A stretch of DNA of 62,503 nt, filler included, from 4 parts of 4 records of this genome joined end to end with filler, not necessarily neighbours in it; one strand, 5' to 3'. Shown: positions 1 through 19,917, numbered from the whole stretch's first letter. Numbers and translations are program-made. Notes: generated by a model not told the origin, from the letters alone.

Positions 1-1371
1 ATCAAACATTTTATAAATGTCTGATGATGGCTGATGAATAACCACGAAAATCAATTTCCCTTTTAAGGTTAATTCTCGTAGCAAATTCATTACGTTTTCA
101 GAATCTCTGGAGGAAAGACCTGAAGTCGGTTCATCGACAAACAAAATAGCCGGTTCCCTGATTAATTCAAGTGCAATATTTAATCTTTTCCTTTGTCCTC
201 CACTAATCATTTTATTTAATGGAGATCCTACTTTAAGATTTCTTCTCTCAAAAAGGCCTAAACTCTGTAGCGTATCATTAACAAGCTCTGTAAGCTCTTC
301 CTCACCTTTATCTTTAAAACAAAGTTTAGCATTGTAATAAAGATTCTCAAATACAGTTAACTCTTCAATTAATAAATCATCTTGAGGAATTAAACCTATT
401 ACACCTTCAATTTTTTCCTTTTCTTTATGCAGATTTATTCCGTTGATACGAACCTCTCCAGTACTTGGACTTTCTATACCGGATAAAACATTCAATAGAG
501 TTGTTTTACCGGCACCACTTGCTCCCATAATACCAACTAATCGCCCATGCTCCTCTGCTAAATTTACATCTCTCAGTCCAATTCCACCGTTTTTGAATGT
601 AAATCCTAATTTATCAACAACATAAGAAATTTTTGGAGTAGATGCATCTGTCATAAAATGACCAACTACATCTGTATAATAAATCGGTGCTCCTGCAGGA
701 AATTTAAGAAAACTACCTTTAGGGAAAAGATAAATGCTACGTTTATTTAATAATAAACCATTTAAAAATATATCCTGACTTCCAGTATATCTTAAGAAAT
801 ATAATTCAGCACTCTTAGCTCTTAAAATAAGAACATTTCCATCCAGTTTACCAGTCTGAATATGCTCTCTATTTTCTCCAGATTTTTCTTCTGAGTTTAT
901 TATAAGTAAATCCTCAAAATCCAAATCATCGAGTTCATTATTTACAACAAACCCTTCAATATTTTTCTTTTCTTCTTCAGATAACCTAAAAACATCGGCT
1001 GCTGTATTAATAATGGCCATACGTTGATCTGTAAATCTTCTGTCGGCATTTATTAATTCGTACATACGTACAACTACAACAACCTTCTGTTCCTTATTAA
1101 GCTTTTTATTAATTTTTTTACAGATTCCGATTATCCTAACGGAATCCTTCATCGAAGTAAGTTTTATTTTTCCATCATCGTTGTTGCCATTAACTTTTTT
1201 GTCGATAGCAAAACTTTGGAATAATGTAAAATACTCCTCAACAGCTTCTGCAGTTAACTGTTGTTTTAAAAAGTTCTTTACAAACTCAGTTTCACTATCT
1301 TGAACACCTCCGTCCTGTTTGGCAATTAAACCAAACAGTTGCATTAAGGCTTTTAAAATTTCTTCACTCAT
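1..1371 (-). CDS. ABCG/White-like ABC ATPase with N-terminal TerB-like domain and degenerate FHA-like segment (runs off the window edge; not in the ORF track)
   Basis: Manual translation from ATG at 1371: MSEEILKALMQLFGLIAKQDGGVQDSE (TerB-like), YFLRYTGSQDIFLNG (FHA-like), Walker A GASGAGKTT, signature ISGGQRKRLNIALEL, Walker B LFVDEPTSGL, and IHQPSSDIYKMFD. The frame is open to position 1. Confidence 0.88.
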   Translation of the reverse strand, partial: MSEEILKALMQLFGLIAKQDGGVQDSETEFVKNFLKQQLTAEAVEEYFTLFQSFAIDKKVNGNNDDGKIKLTSMKDSVRIIGICKKINKKLNKEQKVVVVVRMYELINADRRFTDQRMAIINTAADVFRLSEEEKKNIEGFVVNNELDDLDFEDLLIINSEEKSGENREHIQTGKLDGNVLILRAKSAELYFLRYTGSQDIFLNGLLLNKRSIYLFPKGSFLKFPAGAPIYYTDVVGHFMTDASTPKISYVVDKLGFTFKNGGIGLRDVNLAEEHGRLVGIMGASGAGKTTLLNVLSGIESPSTGEVRINGINLHKEKEKIEGVIGLIPQDDLLIEELTVFENLYYNAKLCFKDKGEEELTELVNDTLQSLGLFERRNLKVGSPLNKMISGGQRKRLNIALELIREPAILFVDEPTSGLSSRDSENVMNLLRELTLKGKLIFVVIHQPSSDIYKMFD

Positions 1372-1403
1372 AAATTAATGTTTCAACAACTTACAATTAA
1401 AGC

Positions 1404-1784
1404 TTAATCTGTATATGCTACGTATTCAAAAGGAATTTCAACAATATCTGCATATTCTTCACCTGCTTCTAGCATATCCTCTTCTTCTTCGTGATAATGC
1501 CAAATAATTTTTACATCATTCCCATTTTCTACGATTTCTTCAAATTTTAATAATATATCTAAAATAATTTTAGAAGAAGCTGTATTAAAGTATTCTAGTT
1601 TAAAATTAAATTCTGTAATATCACTCGGAGATTCTGAGTAGCCATCAATCCATTTCATTATTGGCTCATAAAACATATTCACATCTTCAGGCAATGAGCG
1701 ACCTGAGAGTTCGAATTTCCCGTTATCCTTGTCAAGAATTACATTTGGGGTATCGTCTGTTCCCTGAATATTGATCACGTCCAT
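1404..1784 (-). CDS. siaC: SiaC-family (DUF1987) regulatory phosphoprotein
   Basis: 126 aa with T..TP, GRSLPE and YFNTASSK (phosphoacceptor-Thr motif, codon at 1581-1583) and W.Y....EDM.EAGEE. Lies directly downstream of a siaB-like gene. Confidence 0.85.
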   Translation of the reverse strand: MDVINIQGTDDTPNVILDKDNGKFELSGRSLPEDVNMFYEPIMKWIDGYSESPSDITEFNFKLEYFNTASSKIILDILLKFEEIVENGNDVKIIWHYHEEEEDMLEAGEEYADIVEIPFEYVAYTD

Positions 1785-1805
1785 GGTTTTTTATTTAATC
1801 GTTAA

Positions 1806-2381
1806 TTATTTGTTTCTTTTAATTGTGGAGGTTAATATAAAAAATGAAACTTCATCATTTATTTCTTTAAATTGATAGGACAAGACGCTTCCTGTTTTTT
1901 TAGCAATATCGATAAGCCCTAAACCTGCTCCTCCTTTATCAGAAATTCTACCATCCTTCATTTGAGTTTTATATAACTCTGATAAACCTTGCTTGTCCAA
2001 TGAATTAACCTGTTCAAGATTTTCTCTTAATCCAGGTACTTTCTCGTTTTTTATAATATTACCTGTAATAATATTGTAACTATCCTCACCTTTACTAACC
2101 ATAACAATACCACGCCTTTCAGCTTCATCTTCATCACTCATTGAATCAGCATGTTTACTAATGTTCTGTAAACACTCCACCATTACATTAAATACTTTTC
2201 TCTGCACAGCGTTAGATTCTTCACTTTTAGCAAGATTCCGTTCAGTTAAAGAAGTAAAAGTTTTGGTTATATCCTGAGTAACCTCTCCTTCATAAACTAA
2301 ACTAATTTCATTGGTTTTCATAGTTCGATAAAGCTGGTAAGCAAAATCCAAAAAACTATGCTTATCTAGTGTATTTCCCAT
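1806..2381 (-). CDS. siaB: SiaB-family (DUF6272) Ser/Thr kinase, anti-sigma-kinase-like fold
   Basis: Motifs VE.LQNI.KH, TGN, GGAGLGLIDIAKK; sits between a PP2C gene and siaC. Confidence 0.85.
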   Translation of the reverse strand: MGNTLDKHSFLDFAYQLYRTMKTNEISLVYEGEVTQDITKTFTSLTERNLAKSEESNAVQRKVFNVMVECLQNISKHADSMSDEDEAERRGIVMVSKGEDSYNIITGNIIKNEKVPGLRENLEQVNSLDKQGLSELYKTQMKDGRISDKGGAGLGLIDIAKKTGSVLSYQFKEINDEVSFFILTSTIKRNK

Positions 2382-2406
2382 TGCAATAATTATTTTAAAT
2401 GCATAC

Positions 2407-5013
2407 TTACAATTCTATTCCAATCAATAACACATCATCCACTTGTTTTTCATCTCCCATCCATCTATAAAAATCTTCAGAAAAATGACGAGCAAAATGT
2501 GCCATTGTTAAATCTTCTTTTTCAGTTAAGGCTTCCCTAATTCGTTTGCTTTGGTATTTTCTACGTTTTTCGCCACCTAACTGATCTGGTAAACCATCAG
2601 AGAAGATAAAGATTTTGTCTCCATCTTGATACTCTATTTCATTGTTTTCGAAATCTTTCTCAATTTTCTTACGTAAAGGTTTACCTCCAATACCTTTTCT
2701 TGATCCTTTATATTCGATTAATTCACCTTTTCTCAACAAATATAAAGGATTATGCGCTCCTGCAAATTGTATTGTCTTATTTTCTTTATCAATTTTACAT
2801 AAAGCTAAATCCATTCCATCCCTACCATTATTGCCTTCTTCGTTCTGCTTTAATGTTGAACGAACTCCTTCATGCAAAAGATCGAGAATTCTGGCGGCAT
2901 TAAAGTTATCATCAATATTAACAATATTATTTAAAAGAAAATAACCTATAAATGACAACAAAGCACCAGGTACACCATGTCCAGTACAGTCAACCGCAGC
3001 GACATAAAAAATGTTATCTTTTTTAACAAACCAAGGAAAATCACCACTTACAACATCTTTTGGGCGGTAGAAAATAAAGGATCTAGGAAAATGTCTTTGT
3101 ATAAATTCTGTATCTGGTAAAATTGAAGTCTGAATCCTTTGCGCATAGTTTATACTATCAGAAATCTTCTTATTTTTTTCTTTAATCTCTTGCTCTATTC
3201 GCTTAAGCTCAGTCATATCATGAGCTACAAATAATACAGATTCTAAAACTCTATCATCATTAAACTCCGGTATGGATTTAATCTGCATAATTTTTTCTCC
3301 ATTTGGAGAGGTAATCTTAATTTCATCGATGATTTGTTCTTGCTTTTGTTTTATTTGTATTAAAACATTGTTAACAAAGTCGATGAATCTTTCGTCGATA
3401 TTTAAATCAGTAATCCTTTTTTTGGTAATCTCAGAAGTTGCAAGTCCTATAAAATTACCTACTGCTGGATTTGAGTAAACCAACTTACCAGAAGTATTAA
3501 TTCTCAAAATCATATCTGGAGAGTTTTCAGAAAGAGACTGCATTCTACTTTTCATCCTTTCCTCTTTCTCAGCCCTTATTCTCTCAGTAATATCCTGAGT
3601 ATTAAATATGATCCCTTTTATGGCTGGATCGTGTAGTAAATTTTTACCTTTAGTTTCTAGAAATAACTTCTCACCAGTTTTCTTTAAATATGAATATTGA
3701 GCAACACTTTCGCCACCTGGTGTTTGTTTTAAATAGTTAAATAAATTATTGATAGTTTTATATCCACGAGGAGTCATCATCTCCGGATCCATTCCAATAA
3801 CTTTTTCATCGTCCGAATATCCCAAAATCCTTTTAACAGACGGGCTTTCAAAAACAAGCCTTTGATTTTCGTCGTATATAGAAATAAACTCGGAAGCATT
3901 CGTTAATAATGCAACCATCCTTTTTTGGGCATTTTCAACCTCTTGTACTTTTGATTCAAGCAATTCATTAGATCTTTCCAAGTCTTCCTGGGCAATCATC
4001 ATTTCTTGCGCATTTTGCTTAAGGGTATCCTCATTCTGACGAAGAGTAACTGTCATATCCTGTGATTCCTTAAGCAAAACCTCCGTACGTGCATTTATTT
4101 TTTGTGCATAAATAGTTCTTCCTATCATTGAACTTAGTTCTTCTGCAAACTGTAGCTTATAATTAGGAATACTTGTATTTAGATAGCCTATTTCAATTAC
4201 ACCCTGCAATTCTTCGTCTTGCATTAAAGGTAAAATAATTAAACTCTTAGGTCTAGTATCTCCGAGTAAACCAGAGCTTACTGTAAAATAATCATCAGGA
4301 ATCTCAGTACGATAAATCATGGCCTTCTCGTAAGCAACCTGTCCCACAAGACCTCTACCAATACTATATTCTTGCGTGATAAACCTTTTTCTTCCAAAAG
4401 CATAAGTAGCTTTATTTATTAGCTTATCATTTTCCAATAAATAAAAACAACCTTGAGCTGCATCTGAATACTTAATGATTTCTTTTAATAGATAAAAAGC
4501 CAATTCATTTATATTACGATATGTACGTAATACTTCATTTACCAACTCTTTACCTTTTGTTATCCATTTTAATTCCTCGTCCTTACGGTTAGTTTCCATC
4601 AAGTCTTTAGCAAGACTATACAAGGAGTTATCTTTATCAGCAAGTTGTAATATTTTATTAAAATCTCCCATTCTAATTAAATCGGCGATTTCAATATTAG
4701 ATTTAATTTCCTGTTGTAATTTGTGAATTTCCTTTCTCTGTTTATACTTATTATGTCTTTGATAATTTAAAAAGAATATTATTGACAGTGGTACAAGTAA
4801 AATTAAAATATTAACAAACCATATTAAAACACTTTTATGGATATATACTATAGATTTAAGAGAGAAAGATAACTTGGTAAACTCTACAAAACCACTCCAA
4901 ACCAACAAATAAGCTATTAACAAAAATGCTGTAATAAAGAATATGCTATGCTCAGAAAGCGAAGACATATCCAAATATTTAGTAAAATATTTTTTCAGTT
5001 TTTTAGCTGACAT
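2407..5013 (-). CDS. Membrane GAF-coiled coil-PAS-PAS-PP2C (SpoIIE-type) phosphatase, SiaA-like
   Basis: Two N-terminal TM segments; GAF (GRGLVGQVA, LQGVIEIG); two PAS/PAC repeats (QDITER, HDMTE); PP2C motifs AQRIQ, VSGDF, DCTGHGVPGA, DGMD, FSDG, QVDD. Confidence 0.88.
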   Translation of the reverse strand: MSAKKLKKYFTKYLDMSSLSEHSIFFITAFLLIAYLLVWSGFVEFTKLSFSLKSIVYIHKSVLIWFVNILILLVPLSIIFFLNYQRHNKYKQRKEIHKLQQEIKSNIEIADLIRMGDFNKILQLADKDNSLYSLAKDLMETNRKDEELKWITKGKELVNEVLRTYRNINELAFYLLKEIIKYSDAAQGCFYLLENDKLINKATYAFGRKRFITQEYSIGRGLVGQVAYEKAMIYRTEIPDDYFTVSSGLLGDTRPKSLIILPLMQDEELQGVIEIGYLNTSIPNYKLQFAEELSSMIGRTIYAQKINARTEVLLKESQDMTVTLRQNEDTLKQNAQEMMIAQEDLERSNELLESKVQEVENAQKRMVALLTNASEFISIYDENQRLVFESPSVKRILGYSDDEKVIGMDPEMMTPRGYKTINNLFNYLKQTPGGESVAQYSYLKKTGEKLFLETKGKNLLHDPAIKGIIFNTQDITERIRAEKEERMKSRMQSLSENSPDMILRINTSGKLVYSNPAVGNFIGLATSEITKKRITDLNIDERFIDFVNNVLIQIKQKQEQIIDEIKITSPNGEKIMQIKSIPEFNDDRVLESVLFVAHDMTELKRIEQEIKEKNKKISDSINYAQRIQTSILPDTEFIQRHFPRSFIFYRPKDVVSGDFPWFVKKDNIFYVAAVDCTGHGVPGALLSFIGYFLLNNIVNIDDNFNAARILDLLHEGVRSTLKQNEEGNNGRDGMDLALCKIDKENKTIQFAGAHNPLYLLRKGELIEYKGSRKGIGGKPLRKKIEKDFENNEIEYQDGDKIFIFSDGLPDQLGGEKRRKYQSKRIREALTEKEDLTMAHFARHFSEDFYRWMGDEKQVDDVLLIGIEL

Positions 5014-5022
5014 ATTCCTATA

Positions 5023-5784
5023 TTATAAAGAAATCGACTTTGAAATATAATCATTTATTGTATTCCAATGACTATCGATATTTAACAAACTAAAACTACC
5101 TAACTCCAAAAGTCCAATAGTTTTATTGTTTTGAATAATAGGTAAAAGATATATTACTTTTGGTTTAGATGAGCCTGAACCAGATTCAATTTCGAAATAT
5201 GCTTCATCTATATCTTTTAAGACCATGATATCCTCATCTTGAACAGCCTGACCATTAAAACCCTCTCCTATCTTAAAATCTTTAATTTTAACATTTTCGT
5301 CTAAACCAAAACTAGCCTTTACGGTAAATGTATCCGAAGGTTTGTCTATAAAATAACAAATTCCAACACCTAACTCATAAAAATGGCTTATTTTATTTAA
5401 AAGTTCCTTAGCAACTACATTTATACCCTTTTTACCTTTTAAACTATCATTAATATTTAGAGCAATTTTTTCTACCTCTTTTGTATTAGTCTTACCTGAG
5501 TGTTGCAGCTCTAATTCGGTTAATTTGGATGATAATTCATATACCCTACGATCGCACGTATCTTCTAAGTTTTTATATTTCTGCTCAAAGATTAAACGTT
5601 CCTTTTTTACTTTCCTAATCGTCCTGTCAAACATATAGACAATTGTTAAAAATAAGGCGAGAAATATTAACTCAAGAATCATATACTTGGCCGATAAATC
5701 TGAAACAAATACATCCTTAAATAATGCAAAAACAAAAGCAGCTCCCGAGATTATATATAAACGATATGTAGTATTTCTAATCAT
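5023..5784 (-). CDS. Membrane protein: 2 TM, coiled coil, C-terminal GAF, no output domain
   Basis: Hydrophobic N-terminus; GEGFNGQAV and IGLLELGS GAF motifs that resemble the neighbouring GAF domains. Confidence 0.75.
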   Translation of the reverse strand: MIRNTTYRLYIISGAAFVFALFKDVFVSDLSAKYMILELIFLALFLTIVYMFDRTIRKVKKERLIFEQKYKNLEDTCDRRVYELSSKLTELELQHSGKTNTKEVEKIALNINDSLKGKKGINVVAKELLNKISHFYELGVGICYFIDKPSDTFTVKASFGLDENVKIKDFKIGEGFNGQAVQDEDIMVLKDIDEAYFEIESGSGSSKPKVIYLLPIIQNNKTIGLLELGSFSLLNIDSHWNTINDYISKSISL

Positions 5785-5794
5785 CTAAAACGAA

Positions 5795-6370
5795 TTACAT
5801 CTTGTTTAAAAAATTAATTATTTCTTCTGGAGACAATACTTCATCCGGATTAAATAATTGAAGTGCAGACTTTGTCATAGTATCAACATCACATGTTTTT
5901 GGATCTTGAATTATCGTATAACCTTTTTTATTATAAACTTCCTTTACACCTTTAGCTCCATCTTTATTAGCACCGGTTAATAAAATTCCAACCATCTTTT
6001 CGCGAAAAGCCATAGCCGCAGAAAAAAAAGTATAATCAATAGATGGTCTGCTATGATTTAAAACATCCTCAGTAGATAAAGACAAGGAGGAATCATATTC
6101 AATAAACATATGATAATTGGACGGAGCTAAATAAACTTTTCCAGGCTCTAATTTATCCTTATCAAAAGGTTCTATAACAGGTAGATTCGATTTTATTTTT
6201 AAACCTTCCAATAAACCTGTTCTAATATGCTTTAAACGATGCAAACAAACAACAATCGGATATTTAAAGTCTGAATTAATATTAGACAATATTTTACTTA
6301 CGATAGAAAAACTTCCTGCCGATCCGCCGATTACTATAGCTTTATAATATGAAGCTCTACTATTTACCAT
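5795..6370 (-). CDS. cheB: Stand-alone CheB methylesterase (no receiver domain)
   Basis: GGSAG, CLH, RPSID, LTGANKDGA: catalytic Ser/His/Asp present; 191 aa. Confidence 0.88.
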   Translation of the reverse strand: MVNSRASYYKAIVIGGSAGSFSIVSKILSNINSDFKYPIVVCLHRLKHIRTGLLEGLKIKSNLPVIEPFDKDKLEPGKVYLAPSNYHMFIEYDSSLSLSTEDVLNHSRPSIDYTFFSAAMAFREKMVGILLTGANKDGAKGVKEVYNKKGYTIIQDPKTCDVDTMTKSALQLFNPDEVLSPEEIINFLNKM

Positions 6371-6376
6371 TTAAAT

Positions 6377-7183
6377 TCAAATCTTATATATTTGCTCACC
6401 TTCATCGAAAAGTTCATACATACAGGAATTTGCTTCACTAATTTTTTCCTTAATTCCAATGGATAAATATCCTCCTCTTTTTATTCGATTATGTAAGTAT
6501 TTTTCACTTGTTTCCTGAAGTTTCAGGTTATAATATAACATCCTGTTTCTAAAAATAACTACTGAAATTTCTTCTTCCGGATGTTGGCTGAAGTAGCTTG
6601 CATTTATGAAACAAACATTATTTATTAAATCACTTTTTAACTGTAAACCTTCTTTCTCTTCGTTAAAATAATGATTAAAATTTGTACTTAATTCAAGTCT
6701 CTTATAATTCTGCTTATTTAACTCTAAGTACTTTGAATTAATAATACCACTTTTTATTTCATCTATCTTTCTAACACTTTCTATGTTACAATATATTCTG
6801 CTTTTACTACTTACTCCTAATTCCTCAAGGATCACGATTAAAGAATAAAGTTCCTCTGGCGAAACCAACTCTGGGAACCAAAAACTAATTTCTTCCTCTG
6901 ACATGCTTGGAATTACCCTATTCTTTAGTGCTCTCCAGAATGAAGGATCACGAAACATTTCATTTATGGGCACCGGAAAAAAGTAACAAAAATCTTCAAG
7001 TATACTGCCTGATTTTATCTCACGAATAAATTCACTTGTATTTTTAATATTAAGTACATTATAAATATGAGCGAACCTGCGTCTTAAAAACGAAAAACCA
7101 TAATTATTAAAATCGACATTTAGCTTAATTGATAAAGCTGCCGTCAATTCTCTTATATCGCTTATCGATGGTCCAATAGCCAT
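6377..7183 (-). CDS. Degenerate CheR-like methyltransferase
   Basis: CheR-like MFRDP, EELYS, FRNRMLYY and GGYLSIG are present, but the AGCSSGEE and TDI motifs are replaced. Confidence 0.7.
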   Translation of the reverse strand: MAIGPSISDIRELTAALSIKLNVDFNNYGFSFLRRRFAHIYNVLNIKNTSEFIREIKSGSILEDFCYFFPVPINEMFRDPSFWRALKNRVIPSMSEEEISFWFPELVSPEELYSLIVILEELGVSSKSRIYCNIESVRKIDEIKSGIINSKYLELNKQNYKRLELSTNFNHYFNEEKEGLQLKSDLINNVCFINASYFSQHPEEEISVVIFRNRMLYYNLKLQETSEKYLHNRIKRGGYLSIGIKEKISEANSCMYELFDEGEQIYKI

Positions 7184-7187
7184 TTAA

Positions 7188-8030
7188 TTACTTATATTTT
7201 AAATGAAACTTGTTACTCTTAGTGTATACCATGCCATGCTTCACGAAACGGGTTTTAAAAAAACCATGTAATGCTTCATGAGTTCCTAAAATAAGGACTC
7301 CTCCATCATATAGCTTATCAAAGAACTTTTTTACAATCTTCATTTGTAGATCAGAATTAAAATAAATCAAAACATTTCTACAAAAAATAATATCAAATTT
7401 TTGATAGAATGGTATCTCCTCTTCAACTAAATCATGTCTCTGAAAAACAGGCACTTTTGAAATAAAGTCTTTAACCTTAATTGTATCTTCACTCTCATTT
7501 ATATCGAAGTAATAGTCAAAGGGATTTCCATTAGGATTAATACTCTTCATCAACTGATCATAAACCTCGATATATTGTTTGTTAAACTTTAAATCATAAA
7601 CGGCATTTTTGGCACCCTTAATAACTTTTTGATTTATATCTGTACCTACAACCTTAACTTTATCTAACAAACCTAACTCATTAAACAATATTAAGTTAGA
7701 ATAAACTTCTTGTCCGGAAGAACATCCTGCATGCCAAATATTGATATTTGATTTTGTCTTTAAACCAGGTATAACATCCTTATACAAATACTCCCATGTT
7801 TCAGAATTACGAAATAATTCAGTAGTATTCACGGTAATGTCATCAACTAATTGCTCAACAAAATTCGCATCCGATTTTGTTTTCATCAATAGTTGATCCA
7901 TATCCATGTTATGATCTTTCAGAACTTTTTCAATCCGTCTTTGAATTGAATTATCAGAATAATCACAAAAATTGTATGGCGTATGGTTTTTTAATTCCTC
8001 AAGAAACTCTTTGAATGTTATTTTGCTCAC
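7188..8030 (-). CDS. cheR: CheR protein-glutamate methyltransferase
   Basis: TVNTTELFRN, IWHAGCSSGQEVYS, GTDI, FCRNVLIYF; GTG start. Confidence 0.9.
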   Translation of the reverse strand: MSKITFKEFLEELKNHTPYNFCDYSDNSIQRRIEKVLKDHNMDMDQLLMKTKSDANFVEQLVDDITVNTTELFRNSETWEYLYKDVIPGLKTKSNINIWHAGCSSGQEVYSNLILFNELGLLDKVKVVGTDINQKVIKGAKNAVYDLKFNKQYIEVYDQLMKSINPNGNPFDYYFDINESEDTIKVKDFISKVPVFQRHDLVEEEIPFYQKFDIIFCRNVLIYFNSDLQMKIVKKFFDKLYDGGVLILGTHEALHGFFKTRFVKHGMVYTKSNKFHLKYK

Positions 8031-8046
8031 GTAATTGCTTAGTTGA

Positions 8047-11163: not shown

Positions 11164-11255
11164 AGAACAAGGTTATCTTAATACTTTAACTATTATTAAT
11201 TTGTAATATAGAAAAAATATTCTCTGGTTCACTACATTAAAGCAAAGTATTGATT

Positions 11256-11726
11256 CTAAATTGTTTTTTTATCAAGCAATTTATGTCGTACTTCACCTGT
11301 ATCTGTAAAAAATATAATTTTTCTACCTCTTTTTCCCCCGGTACTTGATGCTACAATTGGAATTTTACGTTCCTCAAGCATAAGTCTGGCTACTCTAATA
11401 TTTCTTTCTCCAATGAGTGTTTTAGAGTTACCTGTTTGCATCAATTCACCGCCTCCAAATATTTTGGCTTGTAAATCTTCTATTCGGGAGCCATGAAATA
11501 ATAACCTATCAATTAGCTTATCAATGGCGATATTACCATACTTTGGTGAAGCTAAATCATTACCATTCCAGTTAGGCAACATATAATGATTAATTCCACC
11601 TATATTTAGACGCGAATCCCATAAACAAATGGCAACACACGACCCAAGTATAGTTTTTACCATATGAGGCTCCTTACTTACAAACAAAGAGGATGGATAT
11701 AAAAAATGTTGTAAATATTGACTCAT
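11256..11726 (-). CDS. cheD: CheD chemoreceptor glutamine deamidase
   Basis: TILGSCVA, GGINHYMLP, AKIFGG, IGERN. Confidence 0.92.
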   Translation of the reverse strand: MSQYLQHFLYPSSLFVSKEPHMVKTILGSCVAICLWDSRLNIGGINHYMLPNWNGNDLASPKYGNIAIDKLIDRLLFHGSRIEDLQAKIFGGGELMQTGNSKTLIGERNIRVARLMLEERKIPIVASSTGGKRGRKIIFFTDTGEVRHKLLDKKTI

Positions 11727-11737
11727 CTAAATTATCC

Positions 11738-12640
11738 TTAAAAAATCTCGTCCTCTTCGTCAAAGAAAATATCATTTCCTTCACCACTAAAACCATCTAC
11801 AATATTTTTGGCTTCAGGAACACTTATTGTAAACGTAGAACCCTCACCTTTCTGGCTTGATATTTCGATATCACCACTCAACACATCAAGTAAAGCTTTT
11901 GTGATAGATAAACCTAATCCATGACCTCTATTGATAGAGTTTATTCCAGTATCTAATCTCTTAAAACGTTCAAAAATTGTTTTTTGATTTTTCTCAGAAA
12001 TACCAGTACCAAAGTCCTGAACTGAAATTTTTAAAACATCATCTTCATTAAGCCAAACTGAAATAACCACATTACTATCTTTGTAACTATACTTAAGCGC
12101 ATTATTAATTAAGTTACTTAGAATTAGTTTAAGTTTTTCTGAATCTGTTTTAAAGTAAAAGTTCTTACCAAATCCGTGTTCAATATTAAATTGTATATCA
12201 ATACTAATTCCCATTTTACGAGAAATAATATTGAAAGAATCTACAACAGTTTGCAACAAACTTCGAATATTTACTTTGGTAATATTTGGTGCAATTTCAC
12301 CTGCTTCTATTTTAGCTGCAACAAAAATATTTTTCAGCTGAAAATCTAAATTAAATGCTTCAGAATGTATTAAAGCCACCATCGAAACAACTTTTTTCCA
12401 ATCATGCTTTTCTACAGACAATATAGCTTTAGACAGTCCTAATATAGAAGTAAATGGATTTACAATTTCGTTAGATATATTTGAAATAAAATGACTTTTC
12501 AACGCCTCTGAATCCTTCAATTTCTTTGAAACATTCTGTAAATCTAATGTCAAATCCTTTATTTCTTTTTCATTACTTTTAGCTAATTCCAGTCTTTCTC
12601 TAAGCGCTTTAAGTAACTGTCTATCCGATAAATTATTCAT
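11738..12640 (-). CDS. Sensor-less histidine kinase-like protein lacking the phosphoacceptor His
   Basis: H-box reads FISNISNEIVNPF. N, G1, F and G2 boxes are intact (NLINNALKYS, DFGTGI, IFERF, GHGLGL). Confidence 0.82.
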   Translation of the reverse strand: MNNLSDRQLLKALRERLELAKSNEKEIKDLTLDLQNVSKKLKDSEALKSHFISNISNEIVNPFTSILGLSKAILSVEKHDWKKVVSMVALIHSEAFNLDFQLKNIFVAAKIEAGEIAPNITKVNIRSLLQTVVDSFNIISRKMGISIDIQFNIEHGFGKNFYFKTDSEKLKLILSNLINNALKYSYKDSNVVISVWLNEDDVLKISVQDFGTGISEKNQKTIFERFKRLDTGINSINRGHGLGLSITKALLDVLSGDIEISSQKGEGSTFTISVPEAKNIVDGFSGEGNDIFFDEEDEIF

Positions 12641-12657
12641 GGTTATAGTTTTGTGCT

Positions 12658-13527
12658 TTATATTTTTCTAAAAATAGTTGGTTTAATATGTTCTAATGGA
12701 ACATTCATTCCTGTTAAAGATTCAGAATGTCCAATAAAAAATATCCCACCCTTTTTAAGACGCTCGCTTAATTTATTAATTACTTTTTCCTGAGTAACTC
12801 TATCGAAATAAATCAATACATTACGACAGAAAATTACATCATAGGTTTCTTTTATATTTGAATAACTCGAATCCATTAAATTCAAGTATTTTAATTGCAA
12901 ATTTCGTTGTAATTCAGGTCTTACTTTTACTGTTGGGTTTTCTTTATCTTTACTTTTTAAAAGATATTTCTTCTTTAATTCTAAAGGAATTACATCGACT
13001 TTATTTAAAGGATATACTCCTTTAGCTGCTTTACTTAAAACATTTTGAGAAATATCCGTACCAAGTAATGAATATTGAAAGGCAGGATGTTCACGCTTAT
13101 ATTCATTCAAAGTAATAGATATAGTATATAACTCTTCACCACTTGAGCAACCTGCACTCCATATTCTAAAAATATCCTGAGAAGATTTTTCAGTAAACTC
13201 AGGAAGAACGTTTGCCTTTAAAAAATCAAAGTGAATTGGTTCTCGATAAAAATCAGTTTTATTTGTAGTTACAACATTTAAAAAATTGAAAATCTCCTCT
13301 TTCTGCCCCTCCTTGCTAAATAGATAATCCTTATATTGACTATAGGATTTCATATTTAATTGTCGTATACGCTTAAGTAACCTTCCCTGTAGCATAACTC
13401 TTTTAACTGGTGGCATTTTAATACCAAACTCAGAGTAAATAAAGTTACTAAAAGCAGTAAAGTCTTTTTCAGACAATTCTGCCTTAAAACAGTCTAGTTC
13501 ACGCGTATTTAACTTACCTTCTTCCAC
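12658..13527 (-). CDS. cheR: CheR protein-glutamate methyltransferase
   Basis: TTNKTDFYRE, IWSAGCSSGEE, GTDIS, FCRNVLIYF, GHSE. Confidence 0.93.
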   Translation of the reverse strand: MEEGKLNTRELDCFKAELSEKDFTAFSNFIYSEFGIKMPPVKRVMLQGRLLKRIRQLNMKSYSQYKDYLFSKEGQKEEIFNFLNVVTTNKTDFYREPIHFDFLKANVLPEFTEKSSQDIFRIWSAGCSSGEELYTISITLNEYKREHPAFQYSLLGTDISQNVLSKAAKGVYPLNKVDVIPLELKKKYLLKSKDKENPTVKVRPELQRNLQLKYLNLMDSSYSNIKETYDVIFCRNVLIYFDRVTQEKVINKLSERLKKGGIFFIGHSESLTGMNVPLEHIKPTIFRKI

Positions 13528-14009
13528 TAACCTTTTATTTCGTCAAGTAACTTACTTATACCAACAATTTCATTGATACTAAACACTTCATCAGAATTTA
13601 AAATAAGATAATGTTTATCATTCACATTGCATGTAGCCTGAATATATTTCGGACTATAATCCGTTTCTATATTTTTAAACATACTTTCATCAGCTTCAAA
13701 CACATCTGTAACAGAATCCATTAATACACCTACTCTAAATACAGCATCTGAATCTTTACGTTTAACATCAATAATTACAATACATGTTTGCATTGATATT
13801 TCAACAGGATTTAAACCAAATTTTAAACCTGCATCTATAACTGGAACTACCTCATCCCTAAAATCGATAACTCCCTTCATAAAAGAAATGGATTCCGGCA
13901 TTTTTCGAGGTTCTTCATATTCCCTAATTTCGCTGACTTTACTAACATGAATAGCAAAGTTTTCAGATCCTATAGTAAATGATAGATATGAGTTATTTAT
14001 CTCTTCCAT
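13527..14009 (-). CDS. cheW: CheW coupling protein
   Basis: YLSF, V.EI, GVIDFRDEVVPVID, GVLMDSV. Confidence 0.85.
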   Translation of the reverse strand: MEEINNSYLSFTIGSENFAIHVSKVSEIREYEEPRKMPESISFMKGVIDFRDEVVPVIDAGLKFGLNPVEISMQTCIVIIDVKRKDSDAVFRVGVLMDSVTDVFEADESMFKNIETDYSPKYIQATCNVNDKHYLILNSDEVFSINEIVGISKLLDEIKG

Positions 14010-14014
14010 CTTTA

Positions 14015-14473
14015 TTAGTTTTTACTTTCTATTTGAGTTATTACATGCATTAAATCAATAAGGTGGACAAACTCTTCTTTTTCTTGAATTGTACCTTCAA
14101 AACTTTCAATAAGTCCCATTCCTTTTTGAAATGCAGGTGGGTTTATCTTCTCCTCATCGACCTCAAAAACTTCCTTTACCAAATCAACCACAACACCAAA
14201 CTGAGATTCTAGTTTATCCTCAGGTGAAACAATAATTATGGAAGTATCCTTAGACCGTTCAACTTCTTCCAAATCCATAATCTTTCTCATATCAGTGATG
14301 GGAATTATATTACCATGCAGGTTAATCACTCCAAGAATATAATTTTTGGTATTAGGTACTTTTGTGATATGACTTTCTTCGTATGGTAATATATTACGAA
14401 CCTTTAAGCTGTCAAAAGCAAAATTTTGGTCTCCTAAACTAAAGGATATTAATGTTTTAAATTCTCCTTCCAT
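14015..14473 (-). CDS. cheW: CheW coupling protein
   Basis: TKVPN, GVINLHGNIIPI, GVVVD. Confidence 0.85.
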   Translation of the reverse strand: MEGEFKTLISFSLGDQNFAFDSLKVRNILPYEESHITKVPNTKNYILGVINLHGNIIPITDMRKIMDLEEVERSKDTSIIIVSPEDKLESQFGVVVDLVKEVFEVDEEKINPPAFQKGMGLIESFEGTIQEKEEFVHLIDLMHVITQIESKN

Positions 14474-14481
14474 TATATTCT

Positions 14482-16521
14482 TTATTTATGAAGTTTTTGT
14501 GTCCAATTATGATGAATTAATCTATTGGTATCAATAACCATAGAGATAGTACCATCACCCATTATAGATGCTCCTGATATAATATCTTGATCTCTTAACA
14601 ACCTTCCTAAAGGTTTAACAACTGTTTGATATTCACCAATAACTTCATCAACTACAAGCCCAATCTTCTTATTTTCAAATTTTACTTGAATAATATGCTC
14701 CTTTCCATCAACCGCTTCCTCATTAAAAACATCTCTAGTTCTAATAATAGGGAATTGCTCGTTGTCTAATGTAATTACATCGTTGAAGATTGCCTTTTTA
14801 TCTTCTACCTCAAGTGGGAATATTTTCTCAATGGCAGAAATAGGAATAACATACTGTGTACCTGCAACAGTAACTAACAGTCCATCTATAATAGATAAAG
14901 TAAGAGGCAACTCTAATGTAATAGTTGTACCTTTATCCAACTCTGAATCAATAGATACTTCACCTCGAATTTCACCAATTTTTCTTTTAACAACATCCAT
15001 TCCTACTCCTCTACCAGAAATATCAGATACATTATCTTTAGTAGAGAATCCACTCATGAAGACTAAATCAAAAATTTCACTTCTTGATAATTCTACACCT
15101 TCATCAATTAATCCTTTAGAGATAGCTTTTTTAAGGATATAATCCGGATCAATTCCTTTTCCATCATCAATAACCTTTATGATAACACTAGCTCCTTCAT
15201 AATAGGCTTTAAATATGATAGTTCCTTTAGGGTTTTTACCTTTTTTAATACGTTCATCGGGCAACTCGATACCATGATCTACACAATTTCTAATCATATG
15301 TAAAAGTGGATCAGTAAGGTGCTCAATAATATTTTTATCAAGTTCAATATCCCCACCTTCAATAATAAAATCAATTTCCTTATTTAATTCTTTAGAAAGA
15401 TCGCGAACTAAACGTTGAAAACGCATCAAATCGTTTTGGATAGGAATCAAACTAATTTCAAAAGCATTATCCCTTAATTGACGAGATAGTTTTTGGATAC
15501 TTTCAGATAAGTTGATAATTTTTGGCTCTCCACTAGTCTCAGCATACAAATTTAGCTGAGCCTGAATAGTAACCAACTCACTAACCAGATTAACTAATTC
15601 ATCAATCTTGGTAGAAGCTACCCTAATACTAGATATTTTATGCTCTTTTAATTGAACCTTTTTCTTTTCACTTGAAACTTCCTTCTTAGCTCCAGACCAA
15701 GAAACAGCTTTTAGCTTTTCTAATGTTAAAACATCTTCCTCTTCTTTAGCTTTACGAACTAACTCTTTAAATAATGGATCCTCAATTATATTACCACTGA
15801 ATATTTCACCAATTTCAAGATCGCACTCATCTTCAACGAAAATAAATACATCTTGAATTTCATTTAATGGCTCAGTAGTGTTTAATATAATATCCCAAGA
15901 AAGAAAACATTCCTGCGGATTCAGATCCTTAAGTTCAGGAATTTTATCAGAATGGTATAATACTACAGCTTCACCTAAAGCATGTAAATCATCCAACAGA
16001 AATAATGGATTCGTACCATTTTGTAAAATATTAGTGTGCGGTTTAAACGAAATAAAATAAGTTTTCGAATCATCCTCTGCAACACTTCCTGTTGTTTCAC
16101 TTCCTACATTTGATTGAGCAACGCTAGTTTCAGTATCTTGAGGTTTAGAAACAAATTGTTGAATTTGTCTAGTAAAAACAGCAAGTTCATTTTTCTCATC
16201 CTCATCAGTTAAATCGCCTACTTCTAAAAAATGTTTAATTTGATCTATAGCAGTAAATGTAATGGAAATTAAGTCATCCGTAATTGCCAACTTATCATTT
16301 CTAACCCAATCAAAAACTGTTTCTAAATGGTGTGTAAATTCACTTAAATCATTGAAACCAAACATCGCACCACCTCCTTTTAAGGAGTGCATTGCCCTAA
16401 AAATACGTTCAATGATTTCCTTGTCAGATCTTTCATTTTCAAGAAGCAATAAAGCTTCCTCAAGATCATGCACATTGTCGAGTGACTCTTCAACAAACTT
16501 GGCTCTAAACTTATCAATCAT
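14482..16521 (-). CDS. cheA: CheA chemotaxis histidine kinase
   Basis: Hpt FRAMHSLKG, P2 region, HMIRNCVDHG, DDGKG, GFST, SGRGVGMDVV, C-terminal CheW-like domain. Confidence 0.96.
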   Translation of the reverse strand: MIDKFRAKFVEESLDNVHDLEEALLLLENERSDKEIIERIFRAMHSLKGGGAMFGFNDLSEFTHHLETVFDWVRNDKLAITDDLISITFTAIDQIKHFLEVGDLTDEDEKNELAVFTRQIQQFVSKPQDTETSVAQSNVGSETTGSVAEDDSKTYFISFKPHTNILQNGTNPLFLLDDLHALGEAVVLYHSDKIPELKDLNPQECFLSWDIILNTTEPLNEIQDVFIFVEDECDLEIGEIFSGNIIEDPLFKELVRKAKEEEDVLTLEKLKAVSWSGAKKEVSSEKKKVQLKEHKISSIRVASTKIDELVNLVSELVTIQAQLNLYAETSGEPKIINLSESIQKLSRQLRDNAFEISLIPIQNDLMRFQRLVRDLSKELNKEIDFIIEGGDIELDKNIIEHLTDPLLHMIRNCVDHGIELPDERIKKGKNPKGTIIFKAYYEGASVIIKVIDDGKGIDPDYILKKAISKGLIDEGVELSRSEIFDLVFMSGFSTKDNVSDISGRGVGMDVVKRKIGEIRGEVSIDSELDKGTTITLELPLTLSIIDGLLVTVAGTQYVIPISAIEKIFPLEVEDKKAIFNDVITLDNEQFPIIRTRDVFNEEAVDGKEHIIQVKFENKKIGLVVDEVIGEYQTVVKPLGRLLRDQDIISGASIMGDGTISMVIDTNRLIHHNWTQKLHK

Positions 16522-16907
16522 GCGTTTGCATTTTTTGAGATTAGAGAATCAAAAAAACGTAATGACTTGACTACGTCTTCTGAATCAATATTGTTTTTCT
16601 GATTAATTTTTAATTCCGATTTCATAATCGGTATAAGCTTTTTTGTATTTGCAACAATTTCATCTGATAAAGAAAGATTACCATCGCGTAAAGCTGCAAA
16701 AACTCTTTCGATTGACTCTGCAATATGATCTATCCCTTCAATGCCTAGCATTGGAGCTGTACCTTTTATTTTATGGGCAGCTGTAAATACTTTTTCAATT
16801 ACGCAACCCTCTACAATTTCTGATCGATCATTTAATAAATCAAGTTCAATCGAATTTAGCTCTTCAAGTGAATCGTTTATAAATCCTTCCTTAATCTTTT
16901 CTATCAT
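16518..16907 (-). CDS. Stand-alone Hpt domain protein
   Basis: VFTAAHKIKGTA resembles the CheA P1 domain; overlaps cheY and cheA by 4 bp each. Confidence 0.82.
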   Translation of the reverse strand: MIEKIKEGFINDSLEELNSIELDLLNDRSEIVEGCVIEKVFTAAHKIKGTAPMLGIEGIDHIAESIERVFAALRDGNLSLSDEIVANTKKLIPIMKSELKINQKNNIDSEDVVKSLRFFDSLISKNANA

Positions 16908-17269
16908 CTTAAAACTCTTGAAATAGCACTTAACAATTTTGCAGGTACAAAAGGTTTAATAATCCAACCTGTCGCACCAGCTTGTTTAGCTTCCATTTTT
17001 TTAGATGCTTGAGATTCAGTTGTTAAAAATAAAATAGGAATATGCTTATAAGCATCTATCTCCCTAACTTTACGAATTAATCCCAAACCATCTAAATTTG
17101 GCATATGTAAGTCGGTAATAATGATATCAATATTACGCCCATCTAAAAATTGAAGCGCATCTTCACCATCTACTCCAACTAAAACATCGTAACCTTCGTT
17201 TTGAAGTGTAAAGTTTACAACTTCTCTTATACTTTCTGAATCGTCAACAATAAGAACTGTCTTAGCCAT
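16904..17269 (-). CDS. cheY: CheY-type single-domain response regulator
   Basis: VDD, DLHMPNLDG, LTTES, GATGWIIKPF. Confidence 0.92.
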   Translation of the reverse strand: MAKTVLIVDDSESIREVVNFTLQNEGYDVLVGVDGEDALQFLDGRNIDIIITDLHMPNLDGLGLIRKVREIDAYKHIPILFLTTESQASKKMEAKQAGATGWIIKPFVPAKLLSAISRVLR

Positions 17270-17287
17270 AATTAGTTAATTATTAAT

Positions 17288-17599
17288 CTATAGTTTAAAT
17301 AGGTCATTAAAACCAGCATTTGCAATTAAGCCATATACTTCTTCGTTCAGTTTCCCTTCAAATTCAAATGTATTACCACTAGTTTCAATAGACTTTTTTA
17401 GTGCAAAAATTATTTGTACAAATGTACTATCTATACTACTGGGATTAGTTACTTCTAACTTTAAATTTTTCGAAAAATCAATTGAATTATTTAACTCCTC
17501 ACTAATATTATCAATATGATTGATAATTAGCTCTCCTGTAATAATTGCCTTTTGACTTTCATCTTCTTGCAATACATCAATTGAATAAGGAACATCCAT
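17288..17599 (-). CDS. STAS-domain protein
   Basis: 103 aa; GEL and IDSTFVQ (STAS phosphosite-like loop); usual position next to cheY. Confidence 0.72.
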   Translation of the reverse strand: MDVPYSIDVLQEDESQKAIITGELIINHIDNISEELNNSIDFSKNLKLEVTNPSSIDSTFVQIIFALKKSIETSGNTFEFEGKLNEEVYGLIANAGFNDLFKL

Positions 17600-17616
17600 A
17601 CTGTATAGAATTTATT

Positions 17617-19320
17617 TTAAAACTTTTCGTAATTATCCAGATCCATATCTTTTTCTAAATTAATAATCTCCTTTTGTTCTGAAACATTTGTTTTTTCAGA
17701 CTTAGGCTCTGAATCATAAATCTCAGCATCTTGATTATTATTTGAAAAAGATTTAGAAACCACTGTTTCCTGATCCATCTCTTCATTACCAATATTAAAG
17801 AAACTAACTGCCTCTTTTAAACTATCTGCTAATACAGATAATTGCTCTGCACTTTGTGTAAGTTCATCTGATGAAGAGGCATTTTCCTGAGTAATTAAGT
17901 TCAACTGTTGCATTGCCATATTAATTTGCTCAGCTCCTGTTTTTTGCTCTAAACTTGCAGCAGAAATTTCTTTAATTAATTGCGTAGTTTTCTCAATATC
18001 TGGCACAAGTAATCTTGATTTTTCACCAGCTTCCTGAGAAACTTTTAATCCACCATTCACTAATGCATGAATTTCATCTGCAGCAACCTTACTACGTTCT
18101 GCTAACTTACGAACCTCAGCAGCAACAACTGAAAAACCACGTCCATGCTCACCTGCCCTGGCTGCCTCTACAGCAGCATTAAGTGCTAATATATTGGTTT
18201 GAAATGCTATGTCTCCAATTATGGTAATCTTCTCTGCAACACTTTTCATTGAATCTGCAGCTTCTGATGATAATTTATCGGCAATATTTACATCCTTAGC
18301 AGTTTCAACTGTGATTTTTTCAGTTTGAACAGCATTGTCTGTATTCTGATCAATATTAGCCACCATCTCTTCAATAGAAGTTGAAACCTCTTCTGCAGAA
18401 GCGGCCTGATCAGCAGAACCTTTTGATAATTGCAAGGAACTGCTTTTAACATTTTGCCCACTACTAACCAAATCATTAGCATTCGTCTTAATAGAAACAA
18501 CAATGTTTTTAATATTAACAGCCATCGCCTTTAAAGCATCAGCTAATTGACCAATTTCATCATCTTGTTCAACTTCTAGTTCGGCCGTTAAGTCACCATT
18601 TCCTATGGCTTGTGCAAAACTGACACCTTTTATTAATGGCTGTACAATAGATTTATACAATATATATGCGATCACTGCAGAAATAACAACTAACACAAAT
18701 ATCATAATGATTACAAAACCGCTAAAGCTACCAAAAGATGCATCCATCTCTGATAAAGACGCATTATTTAATTCTGAAAATTTATTTCCTAAAGCTGTTA
18801 AATCAACAATAATTTGGTTACTCAATGTTATTATTTCTCCATCTTCCTGAACCATAGGCTCAACTTCGAAAATAACCATTACGTCATCATAAGCTTCAAA
18901 AGAATTTAAACTAGACATTACGTAACTATGCTTTTCAAATAAAGCATCAATTGTATGTTTTATAGAATCGAATTGAAGTTGATCTTCTTTATTTTTCCAT
19001 TCCAACTTTAATCCTTCAATTCTTTTAATAAGTTCTGGATATTCTTCAGCGTGAAGTTTTTCTAATACAATTTTATCAGCAGTACCTGGTTGACGATCAA
19101 TAAACACCCAACTCTTTATTAAAGCTTTTGAACTAATAACCATATCCTTAAGCTGTTGTAAGCTTTGTTCCGAAGGACTATAAACACCAGTTATATCGTC
19201 ACTTAAACTTCTACTTTCTTTTAATGTGAAAAATGTTAATATACCATTAACAAGTATCGCTATTAATATTAAACTAAAACCAGCAATCAGTTTCTGGGCA
19301 ATATTCAATTTTATCTTCAT
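17617..19320 (-). CDS. Methyl-accepting chemotaxis protein (helical sensor, HAMP, C-terminal pentapeptide NYEKF)
   Basis: 2 [49 protein letters not shown]. Confidence 0.96.
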
Positions 19321-19404
19321 ACGTTTAAATTAATCTTCAATATTGTAAGTATTGCAATATTAAACCAAATATATCACATTACTTAAACTATCGTTAACTT
19401 CGAT

Positions 19405-19917
19405 TTACTTCTTAATGGCAGCAGCCATATTAGATAATTTTGAACTAATGCTTAAACCTAATGTTTGCGCATTAGAATCATGAATTTCAAATTTCAAATT
19501 ATTTTCTCTTACCACAAAATTAATAACCGAACCATGCTTTGTAGCTCCTTCAGCTTCAGTTATTAAAAGTGAACTTTTTCCTATCTTACCTAACAAGGTT
19601 TCTGAATGCTTTGTAAAGTTTATAAAAGAAGAAACATATAATACTTGACAATCAGTAACTTCTTCAATAGAATTAAACTTTTTAATTACTACATTCTGAT
19701 AACCAAATTTTTTTCCAGCTGATTGTTTTTCTAACCAATCCGCTATTTTATCACTTTTTAAAACACCGATTATAAAATCACCTTGTTTAGCATCATCTGG
19801 CCAACCAATGTATCGGATAAAATTTAAGGTAAATACAGATTTGTACTTTTCAACTTGACCATAACTCATGCATGGTATGATCAAGAGAAAAAATAAAAAT
19901 AGAAATATTTTTCTCAT
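19405..19917 (-). CDS. YfiR/HmsC-family (DUF4154) exported protein
   Basis: Signal peptide; K..F.LNF.RYI.WP, CQVLYV, INFV, LKFEI, GL.ISSKL. Confidence 0.82.
   Translation of the reverse strand: MRKIFLFLFFLLIIPCMSYGQVEKYKSVFTLNFIRYIGWPDDAKQGDFIIGVLKSDKIADWLEKQSAGKKFGYQNVVIKKFNSIEEVTDCQVLYVSSFINFTKHSETLLGKIGKSSLLITEAEGATKHGSVINFVVRENNLKFEIHDSNAQTLGLSISSKLSNMAAAIKK

Follow-up and report, generated by a model that had tools for sequence, protein, structure and literature searches.

Several described signalling systems come close to parts of the locus treated here, a run of 21 genes on the minus strand that occupies positions 1..19917 of a 62,503-nucleotide stretch of DNA (the window, meaning the whole stretch that was analysed) and combines chemosensory (che) genes, a second methylation module and a SiaABC-like partner switch. 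Class F8 chemosensory systems, including Pseudomonas syringae pv. tomato cluster II and the rhizobial STAS-CheY-CheA-CheW-MCP clusters, have in common with it a cluster-encoded 34-heptad (34H) methyl-accepting chemotaxis protein (MCP) with a C-terminal pentapeptide and the genes cheR, cheD and cheB; the STAS-cheY-cheA-cheW order is that of the nearest annotated proteobacterial cheA locus examined, which bears no class label, and no CheZ, CheC or CheV is recognised in the 21-gene run. The SiaABCD system of Pseudomonas aeruginosa shares the order of PP2C phosphatase, kinase and DUF1987 protein, a threonine at the same position (Thr68) and a kinase that passes the SiaB family model, while Rv1747 of Mycobacterium tuberculosis, said to be an FHA-regulated ABC transporter, shares the ABC-2/ABCG type of transporter and, by predicted structure, a probable FHA-fold domain preceding the ATPase. 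The methylation module is closest to the MAC2 systems, which reportedly go back to Wuichet and Zhulin (2010). In the accessible parts of two papers (10.1101/2022.05.07.491037, PMC6943060), MAC2 systems likewise encode a CheR, and a CheB that lacks a receiver, next to GAF-coiled-coil proteins bearing Glu-Glu or Gln-Glu (EE/QE) heptads, not next to an MCP. The Bacillus cereus RsbK-RsbM-RsbY-RsbV/W pathway also ends in a PP2C phosphatase and a partner switch, upstream of which RsbM methylates the RsbK helix that follows the GAF domain (PMC4574943, in the sections available).

The locus departs from each of these systems. Unlike F8 clusters, it is the principal system of its host, which is non-flagellated and has 22 colinear receptors, and it additionally holds a free Hpt protein, a His-less kinase before cheD, a YfiR-like gene, a GAF-coiled-coil protein (the hinge) and the attached cassette. 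Compared with MAC2 and RsbK-RsbM, as far as the same partial sources describe them, receptor and kinase are not in one protein and the coiled-coil proteins end in PP2C or PAS-PAS; a cognate CheB is present (RsbM is an orphan) together with a second, degenerate CheR; SiaB/SiaC take the place of RsbW/RsbV, and a transporter gene is the neighbour where the B. cereus pathway has sigma-B. An ABCG-type transporter stands in the SiaD position, there is no diguanylate cyclase, and the phosphatase carries GAF-coiled coil-PAS-PAS inputs; in comparison with Rv1747, a single probable FHA-fold domain lies behind a TerB-like domain, canonical phosphothreonine (pThr)-binding residues are not evident and the partner kinase is of SiaB type. 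The combination is real and conserved, is built from known kinds of parts and is fused mainly in one family, the Marinilabiliaceae (Bacteroidales). Our preferred reading, to which we give not quite an even chance, is that two separable modules were fused into one run in the Marinilabiliaceae ancestor and work in series, from receptors, CheA and CheY via the hinge to PP2C and SiaB, SiaC and the transporter. A literature search, mostly of open papers without supplements, found no description of the locus, of a SiaC-ABC pairing or of a Bacteroidales CheA system, and the genes may already be classed in MiST or in the tables of Wuichet and Zhulin 2010. The novelty that the initial annotation had seen in the combination thus stands within that literature, although its second methylation module turns out to resemble a known kind. 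The genes, with domain calls from Pfam/NCBIfam profile searches, follow in order of transcription.

19405..19917, minus strand: YfiR/HmsC-like periplasmic protein (DUF4154), 170 aa, with a hydrophobic N-terminal segment
17617..19320, minus strand: MCP with two transmembrane (TM) segments and HAMP, 34-heptad class, C-terminal xZxxZ pentapeptide NYEKF
17288..17599, minus strand: single-domain STAS protein, fast-evolving (mean identity 32%)
16904..17269, minus strand: CheY, mean identity across the family 94%
16518..16907, minus strand: stand-alone Hpt protein, His conserved in 20/20 aligned copies
14482..16521, minus strand: CheA with Hpt, dimerisation, HATPase and CheW domains and no fused receiver
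14015..14473, minus strand: CheW
13527..14009, minus strand: second CheW
12658..13527, minus strand: chemosensory CheR with GCSSGEE and CRNV motifs
11738..12640, minus strand: HK*, a soluble His-less kinase-like protein (HATPase_c) with an acidic tail ending EIF, candidate CheY-P phosphatase
11256..11726, minus strand: CheD
10033..11163, minus strand: CheB with a receiver (REC) domain
8047..9924, minus strand: hinge protein without output domain, built as 2TM-GAF-coiled coil (QEEELRQNLEEMQATQEE heptads)-PAS-PAS and ending in the conserved tail EVELF
7188..8030, minus strand: cassette CheR, motifs present, on the MAC2 side of the CheR tree
6377..7183, minus strand: CheR*, a degenerate CheR-like protein whose motifs are retained in the Cytophagales orthologue
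5795..6370, minus strand: CheB methylesterase without receiver (CheB2); Ser17, His44 and Asp137 invariant in 19 aligned
5023..5784, minus strand: 2TM and GAF protein, fast-evolving (28%)
2407..5013, minus strand: 2TM-GAF-coiled coil-PAS-PAS-PP2C (SpoIIE) phosphatase, C-terminal part SiaA-like
1806..2381, minus strand: SiaB-family kinase (DUF6272)
1404..1784, minus strand: SiaC-family phosphoprotein (PF09345), Thr68 invariant in 72 aligned
1..1371, minus strand: ABCG/ABC-2-type transporter, 5′ part of a 1021-aa gene with a TerB-like and FHA-fold head, running past the window edge

The co-orientation and tight packing described in the initial annotation hold: all 21 open reading frames are on the minus strand, neighbours are spaced -4 to 108 bp apart (widest gaps 108, 92 and 84 bp), and the arrangement is not due to chance, because the gene order recurs across the family. 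Its count of three CheR-like and two CheB genes is likewise correct, one of the former (CheR*) being degenerate, and the profile searches agree that the block holds no GGDEF, flagellar or pilus gene. A single MCP gene is true of the locus only, as the matching complete genome (G001) has 25, and the run does not end at the ABC exporter: the window edge cuts that gene, and in G001 (locus L006) the full 1021-aa gene is followed on the same strand by a gene for a 307-aa lipoprotein-like protein and one for a 152-aa secreted protein. Shuffled sequence gives more sigma-70-type promoter matches than the locus itself (99 vs 76), the minus strand shows no terminator-like site, and TAnnTTTG, which we take to be the Bacteroidetes promoter element, occurs in at most 6/25 at any junction and is conserved at none, which does not by itself prove a single transcript.

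The joining of the two modules is best documented within the Marinilabiliaceae, non-flagellated bacteria of marine and sediment habitats to which the named relatives of the host belong. The window consists of four records joined by N44-TTAATTAATTAA-N44 spacers at 31727-31826, 40427-40526 and 47105-47204, and the 21-gene run lies wholly inside the first, which is 99% identical to G001. SiaB was found in 96/96 and CheA in 94/96 family genomes, and cheA and siaB lie 13-15 kb apart on the same strand in 67/96 genomes and 19/22 genera (from the best 150 of 215 siaB matches); elsewhere in the family they are apart on one contig (14 genomes) or on different contigs (13), or CheA is missing (2). Twenty loci from 18 genera, selected as linked, were examined closely, and in 19 of them the order is unbroken to the ABC gene. 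Breaks fall between PP2C and siaB (G014, G026, G029, G055 and named Carboxylicivirga records) or after siaB (part of g22); the che genes, the methylation module and PP2C stayed contiguous in every broken locus examined, and in no locus examined is cheB separated from the GAF-PAS gene. A neighbourhood survey of the kind proposed in the initial annotation gave a mixed answer. The ABC gene comes next after siaC in 56/60 named loci that show siaC, the exceptions being two contig ends and two hybrid kinases, and Thr68 is kept; of the 508 named cassette loci the 80 best were compared, and cheB lies upstream of the cassette in 38/42 loci of family type (the other 4 lack room), as against 0/38 of the remaining loci; in the 30 of these with at least 6 kb of room no che genes lie upstream. 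This split is partly circular, since 6 of the 42 family-type loci fall outside the top-scoring block and were placed by similarity after their gene order was known.

The clearest pointer to a functional link is the hinge protein, which carries GAF, coiled coil, PAS and PAS with no output domain and neither HisKA nor HATPase. At order level, 60 CheA loci were fetched (one or two per genome, from part of the listed rows); 35 of them hold both HK* and cheB, and in 23 of these 35, all non-family loci, a GAF-coiled coil-PAS gene comes next after cheB. In the GAF-coiled-coil tree (like all trees here a quick tree, with support only from the Shimodaira-Hasegawa approximate likelihood ratio test, SH-aLRT) the window hinge is nested among che-linked copies (SH-aLRT 93), which lie inside an output-less family (SH-aLRT 95) that also contains cassette-linked and Cache-fused copies; the sister group of this family is the cassette PP2C, and HAMP-GAF hybrid (MAC2-type) kinases branch outside both. 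Che-linked copies end, with few exceptions, in xV[ED][LF]F or EIELF, and cassette-linked copies do not have the tail. HK* tails are similar, mostly an acidic residue, a hydrophobic residue and Phe. As the hinge gene travels with che across the Bacteroidales, we place the seam between the modules at 8047|8030; the boundary at 9924|10033 given in the initial annotation was rejected on the position of the hinge gene after cheB in other Bacteroidales and on its place in the tree. The protein is therefore che-linked by position and cassette-like by descent, and this is our best evidence that the modules are functionally linked. G001 has three GAF-coiled-coil proteins, all in the locus, and 25 MCPs, which makes it plausible that input arrives through che; G489 has 12. 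Cytophagales replicons hold many GAF-coiled-coil copies, and at G489:C1:3617116-3624741 and in plasmid matches H1-H20 they occur in tandem and scattered, some of them Cache-fused; this expansion looks as if they formed a receptor family parallel to the MCPs. A family-type locus is also carried by a record titled as a Clostridium metagenome-assembled genome (L145), whose hinge groups with a family genome and which is probably a mislabelled or mixed bin.

Downstream of the seam, the coiled coils of hinge and PP2C carry conserved EE/QE heptads, and the same heptads recur in HAMP-GAF hybrid kinases beside cheR-cheB pairs in other Bacteroidales, a pattern consistent with methylation of these coiled coils by the cassette CheR. 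The CheR tree splits the chemosensory CheR from all others (100) and puts the cassette CheRs on the same side as MAC2-like CheRs, a grouping that is itself weak (74). In the same tree, the one CheR of the Cytophagales, which is intact, clusters with the degenerate CheR* of Bacteroidales (97). Among best-hit copies of CheR*, 14/108, all from Cytophagales-type cassettes, retain GCSxGEE and CRNV, presumably the SAM-site motifs of CheR, and the window copy does not have them. The receiver-less CheB2 has an intact catalytic triad. Nine weaker CheB matches (E 1e-56 to 1e-61), left out of all counts, lie beside large hybrid-kinase-like genes (eight) or unassigned genes (one), none of them in a cassette. 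The cassette resembles MAC2 or RsbK-RsbM methylation feeding into a SiaABC-like switch.

The chemosensory block is F8-like rather than of class ACF, a class assignment by likeness only. The locus MCP is assigned to 34H because 119 residues separate the end of its HAMP domain (272) from the tip Glu391, and its matched span is 17 shorter than the Tsr (36H) model; 22 of the 25 MCPs of G001 align gap-free to it, and 5 have pentapeptides. The MCP tail NYEKF conforms to the xZxxZ rule for C-terminal CheR/CheB-binding pentapeptides, to which neither the hinge tail (EVELF) nor the HK* tail (EDEIF) conforms. The CheA of the block has no fused receiver domain, which we take to be a trait of class ACF, and the quick CheA tree contains only two proteobacterial rows. 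An annotated rhizobial locus among the nearest cheA matches reads STAS-Y-A-W-M, and the order STAS-Y-A-W-(M)-R-(D)-B matches annotated loci that bear no class label. In the parts of two papers that could be consulted, 34H receptors are associated with class F8 (PMC9321776, PMC11253619). HK* is more conserved across the family than CheA (78% vs 60% identity) and directly precedes cheD in 97/99 locus copies (some genomes counted twice). At the phospho-His position, checked against solved kinases, it has Asn57, which is Asn in 45/45 aligned sequences and in 98 of the 99 locus copies, the last being unmatched; the phospho-acceptor His of the HisKA H box is missing, and the ATP boxes and an ExxN motif (Glu58, Asn61), presumably a phosphatase motif, are kept. 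With ExxN kept and no CheZ or CheC recognised in the locus, HK* would be a CheY-P phosphatase. G001 holds a second CheA gene, in a divergent cheA-MCP-cheW trio without cheR (L011, G001:C1:3611000-3630999) that faces response regulator and hybrid kinase genes, with a similar locus in G073.

At the other end of the run, the PP2C and the SiaB-family kinase lie directly upstream of SiaC. The kinase passes the SiaB-family model (176 bits vs a cut-off of 85), and scores for SiaA, SiaB and SiaC stay below the equivalog cut-offs (170/700, 90/225 and 86/150). Thr68, kept in 72/72 aligned SiaC sequences, corresponds to the phosphorylation site of Pseudomonas SiaC (10.1101/674879, accessible text); unphosphorylated SiaC binds the adjacent target there, and DUF1987 proteins have been proposed to modulate neighbour-encoded proteins (PMC8457831, in the portion available). 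The head of the ABC protein is modelled with a predicted local distance difference test score (pLDDT) of 87.6. Its predicted structure includes a TerB-like domain (Z 8.7, root-mean-square deviation (rmsd) 3.5, 114 aligned) and, at residues 150-235, a region for which FHA chains fill both match lists (best Foldseek E 0.026; best Z 7.8 with rmsd 2.6 over 77 aligned, values also seen for common arrangements), Rv1747 FHA-2 being among the matches (Z 6.8, rmsd 2.3, 71 aligned). Complex prediction for SiaC and the ABC head gave 0.46 vs 0.02 for the best control, with at least 98% contact agreement across runs and a partner pLDDT of at least 90. In calibration the mark was reached by 51/78 solved pairs, 2/108 mismatched pairs and 7/44 blind neighbours, and scores up to 0.60 include only 5 of the 78 solved pairs yet all 4 passing mismatches of 180, which makes this a weak indication that SiaC contacts the head. 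The membrane domain is of ABC-2 exporter type and suggests that the transporter is an exporter. An invariant CxxC at residues 495-498 of the full-length protein (L006:554-3619), after the ATPase domain, is present in 8/8 aligned full-length copies including both paralogues and is a possible metal site. The 307-aa lipoprotein has a confident helical model (pLDDT 85.8) with no Foldseek match at E ≤ 0.001, and Atlas searches with it and the secreted protein returned Bacteroidota clusters only, none of them named.

Further copies of these genes occur elsewhere. A second siaB-siaC pair in G001 (L008:10766-15374), with no PP2C nearby, converges on a TerB/FHA-fold ABC paralogue, before which lies a gene resembling that of the 152-aa secreted protein; a third ABC paralogue (L007:4671-13061), with no sia genes, is arranged convergently to a paralogue of the lipoprotein gene, and an MCP gene lies some 3 kb off; and a third siaC with its Thr kept (L010:10031-10411) is solitary, with neither kinase nor transporter adjacent. 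Two named loci (L152, L165) have a hybrid kinase of about 1000 aa in place of the ABC gene after siaC, and in L152 cheD stands directly upstream of the GAF-coiled-coil gene. In some genomes of the order sample the SiaB family has as many as 17 matches, and certain frames among them, about 380 and 510 aa long, are of a size that suggests tandem or fused forms.

If the modules do work in series, signalling might proceed as follows. In module A (8047-19917), 34H receptors, CheW and CheA would phosphorylate CheY, and the free Hpt might serve as a phosphate buffer; CheR, CheB and CheD would adapt the receptors, and HK* would probably dephosphorylate CheY. Module B (1-8030 and beyond) would be a MAC2/RsbK-like cassette in which the cassette CheR and the receiver-less CheB methylate and demethylate the Glu/Gln heptads of the membrane PP2C phosphatase and of its output-less GAF-coiled-coil partners. 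Phosphatase and SiaB kinase would set the phosphorylation of SiaC Thr68, and unphosphorylated SiaC would bind the TerB/FHA-fold head and gate the ABCG transporter. The hinge would be the adaptor, pairing with the phosphatase via the common GAF-coiled-coil scaffold, and its xVELF tail would engage CheY, CheR or CheB on the che side. We infer this adaptor role, the direction of signal flow and export as the output; the second siaBC pair of G001, in converging on an ABC paralogue, supports the series model.

A number of observations weigh against a series arrangement. A sample of 221 Bacteroidales genomes holds CheA in 72, SiaB in 95 and cassette CheB in 77, with CheA and cassette CheB together in 57. 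That 57/72 CheA genomes carry the cassette speaks for the series reading (kin are not independent); 15 of the 72 CheA genomes have no cassette CheB, and 20 of the 77 cassette genomes have no CheA match. Among 54 non-family genomes with both modules, a single one (G445) has them joined, 2 have them 16-25 kb apart, 4 complete genomes more than 170 kb apart and 47 on different contigs. The Cytophagales (Marivirga, Fulvivirga, Microscilla and others) have the cassette without adjacent che genes, and the family itself is not exempt, since genus g8, G055 and part of g22 have siaB-siaC-ABC or siaC-ABC at a place apart from the rest of the run. In a phylum-wide sample, left out of these totals, most rows belong to the same phylum and not the same class and have CheA types unlike that of the locus; six same-class genomes in it have SiaB without a CheA match. 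Since the modules are separate outside the family, the 20-kb cascade is best regarded as a family-level fusion of two separately existing modules. What the initial annotation said would count against a conserved joint locus, unlinked blocks in most relatives, is thus contradicted within the family and partly seen beyond it. At the level of residues and domains, none of the module B proteins has a receiver domain by Pfam, which leaves no canonical entry for a His-Asp phosphate, and the xVELF tail falls outside the xZxxZ rule. Gly-Arg and Ser-x-x-His, which we take to be the FHA phosphothreonine-binding motif, are not seen in the conservation of 72 ABC head sequences; the lack of evident pThr-binding residues also fits binding of unphosphorylated SiaC, as with SiaD. 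Finally, identity across the family is far higher for CheY (94%; in three other families it is 71-75%) than for hinge (65%) and PP2C (60%), and this may point to a target outside the locus, for example the Gld motor.

The same observations feed the alternative that the two pathways are co-transcribed and unwired, with che steering gliding (type IX secretion system (T9SS)/Gld) or adhesion via CheY-P and the cassette independently gating the transporter, and the fusion reflecting co-regulation or a frozen rearrangement. We consider this a serious possibility, though on the less probable side. In most other Bacteroidales the two modules lie apart, and either can be found alone. The cassette lacks a receiver domain, CheY is extremely conserved, and GldK is present in 5/5 genomes; GldK also serves secretion, for which reason its presence is no proof of gliding. 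A pathway with a single-domain CheY-type regulator shifts the bias of the T9SS motor in Flavobacterium (RgzAB, 10.64898/2026.07.01.735801, accessible part), yet that motor, whose rotating ring lies in the outer membrane, has no established cytoplasmic switch target in the parts of PMC12239597 available. Pure independence also leaves unexplained why cheB is accompanied throughout the order by a dedicated protein from the same GAF-coiled-coil family as that in the cassette.

Alternatively, the flow could run backwards or elsewhere: transporter, lipoprotein and secreted partner would be a flux co-sensor with control over SiaB/SiaC, and the target of SiaC, or of the free STAS protein, would be a sigma factor, the che array or something else. 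This we regard as improbable. When the locus breaks, siaB, siaC and the ABC, lipoprotein and secreted-protein genes move as a unit; the two partner genes match no known family and seem to encode periplasmic or secreted products; G001 has a third, solitary siaC; in two named loci the gene after siaC encodes a hybrid kinase instead of the ABC protein; and the weak SiaC-ABC complex score is silent on direction. Against it stand the exporter-type membrane domain and the Pfam/NCBIfam searches, in which no sigma or anti-sigma gene is recognised in the locus. Moreover, SiaC of Pseudomonas acts as an effector whose binding partner is the protein encoded by the next gene (PMC8457831, available portion).

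An ordinary flagellar chemotaxis operon beside unrelated genes, which the flagellin gene in the window and the definition of F classes as flagellar might suggest, has a negligible chance and is refuted for the genomes searched, as that flagellin sits in a foreign record, FlhA is above cut-off in 0/96 family genomes and flagellin was found in 0/5, with positive controls detected. The record in question, the second (CO dehydrogenase, ABC importer, flagellin at 38862-39698), has no match in G001, whereas records 1 and 3 match it; record 4 (DUF7006, CHAP, ribonucleotide reductase; higher G+C) looks foreign, its first 2.8 kb having no match when compared with G001. G001 itself has no FlhA, GGDEF, PilT or flagellin, which leaves CheY without the flagellar explanation that the initial annotation had allowed for; by the FlhA search the family lacks flagella, as the initial annotation had said of most Bacteroidota. 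A type IV pilus was likewise rejected as an explanation (PilT above cut-off in 0/5 genomes), as was a cyclic diguanylate (c-di-GMP) output, GGDEF being above cut-off in 2/96 family genomes. G001 has 25 MCP, 2 CheA, 3 CheR, 2 SiaB and 3 SiaC genes as well as GldK, and all three of its CheR genes sit in the 21-gene locus. Divergent from the cascade, at 20073-24489 of the window, lie a gene for a 336-aa RidA-like protein, an MMPL/RND transporter gene and a polyprenyl synthase gene, a neighbourhood retained in several relatives.

In this one gene run three questions meet, namely the outputs of chemosensory systems, MAC-type proteins and the targets of SiaC. The outputs of many chemosensory classes are still unidentified in the literature, as far as the accessible text goes; MAC-type proteins are described there as experimentally uncharacterised, and SiaC has one characterised target in the literature searched. 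The family has cultured species, and with flagella absent and c-di-GMP enzymes nearly so, neither blurs the picture much; the locus offers specific targets in the hinge tail, the EE/QE heptads, Asn57, Glu58 and Asn61 of HK*, SiaC Thr68 and the ABC head. With CheA in 72 of the 221 sampled Bacteroidales genomes, this is a large system lacking a known output. It is rather unlikely, though worth stating, that in non-flagellated Bacteroidales a full chemoreceptor array controls a transporter, not a motor, via a hinge with an xVELF tail, a methylation-tuned PP2C, SiaC and an ABCG exporter. If true, this would give an F8-like system a defined non-motility output, and the GAF-coiled-coil proteins would be a second methylated receptor family, expanded like MCPs in other Bacteroidota (the 12 copies of G489; the Cache-fused Cytophagales copies).

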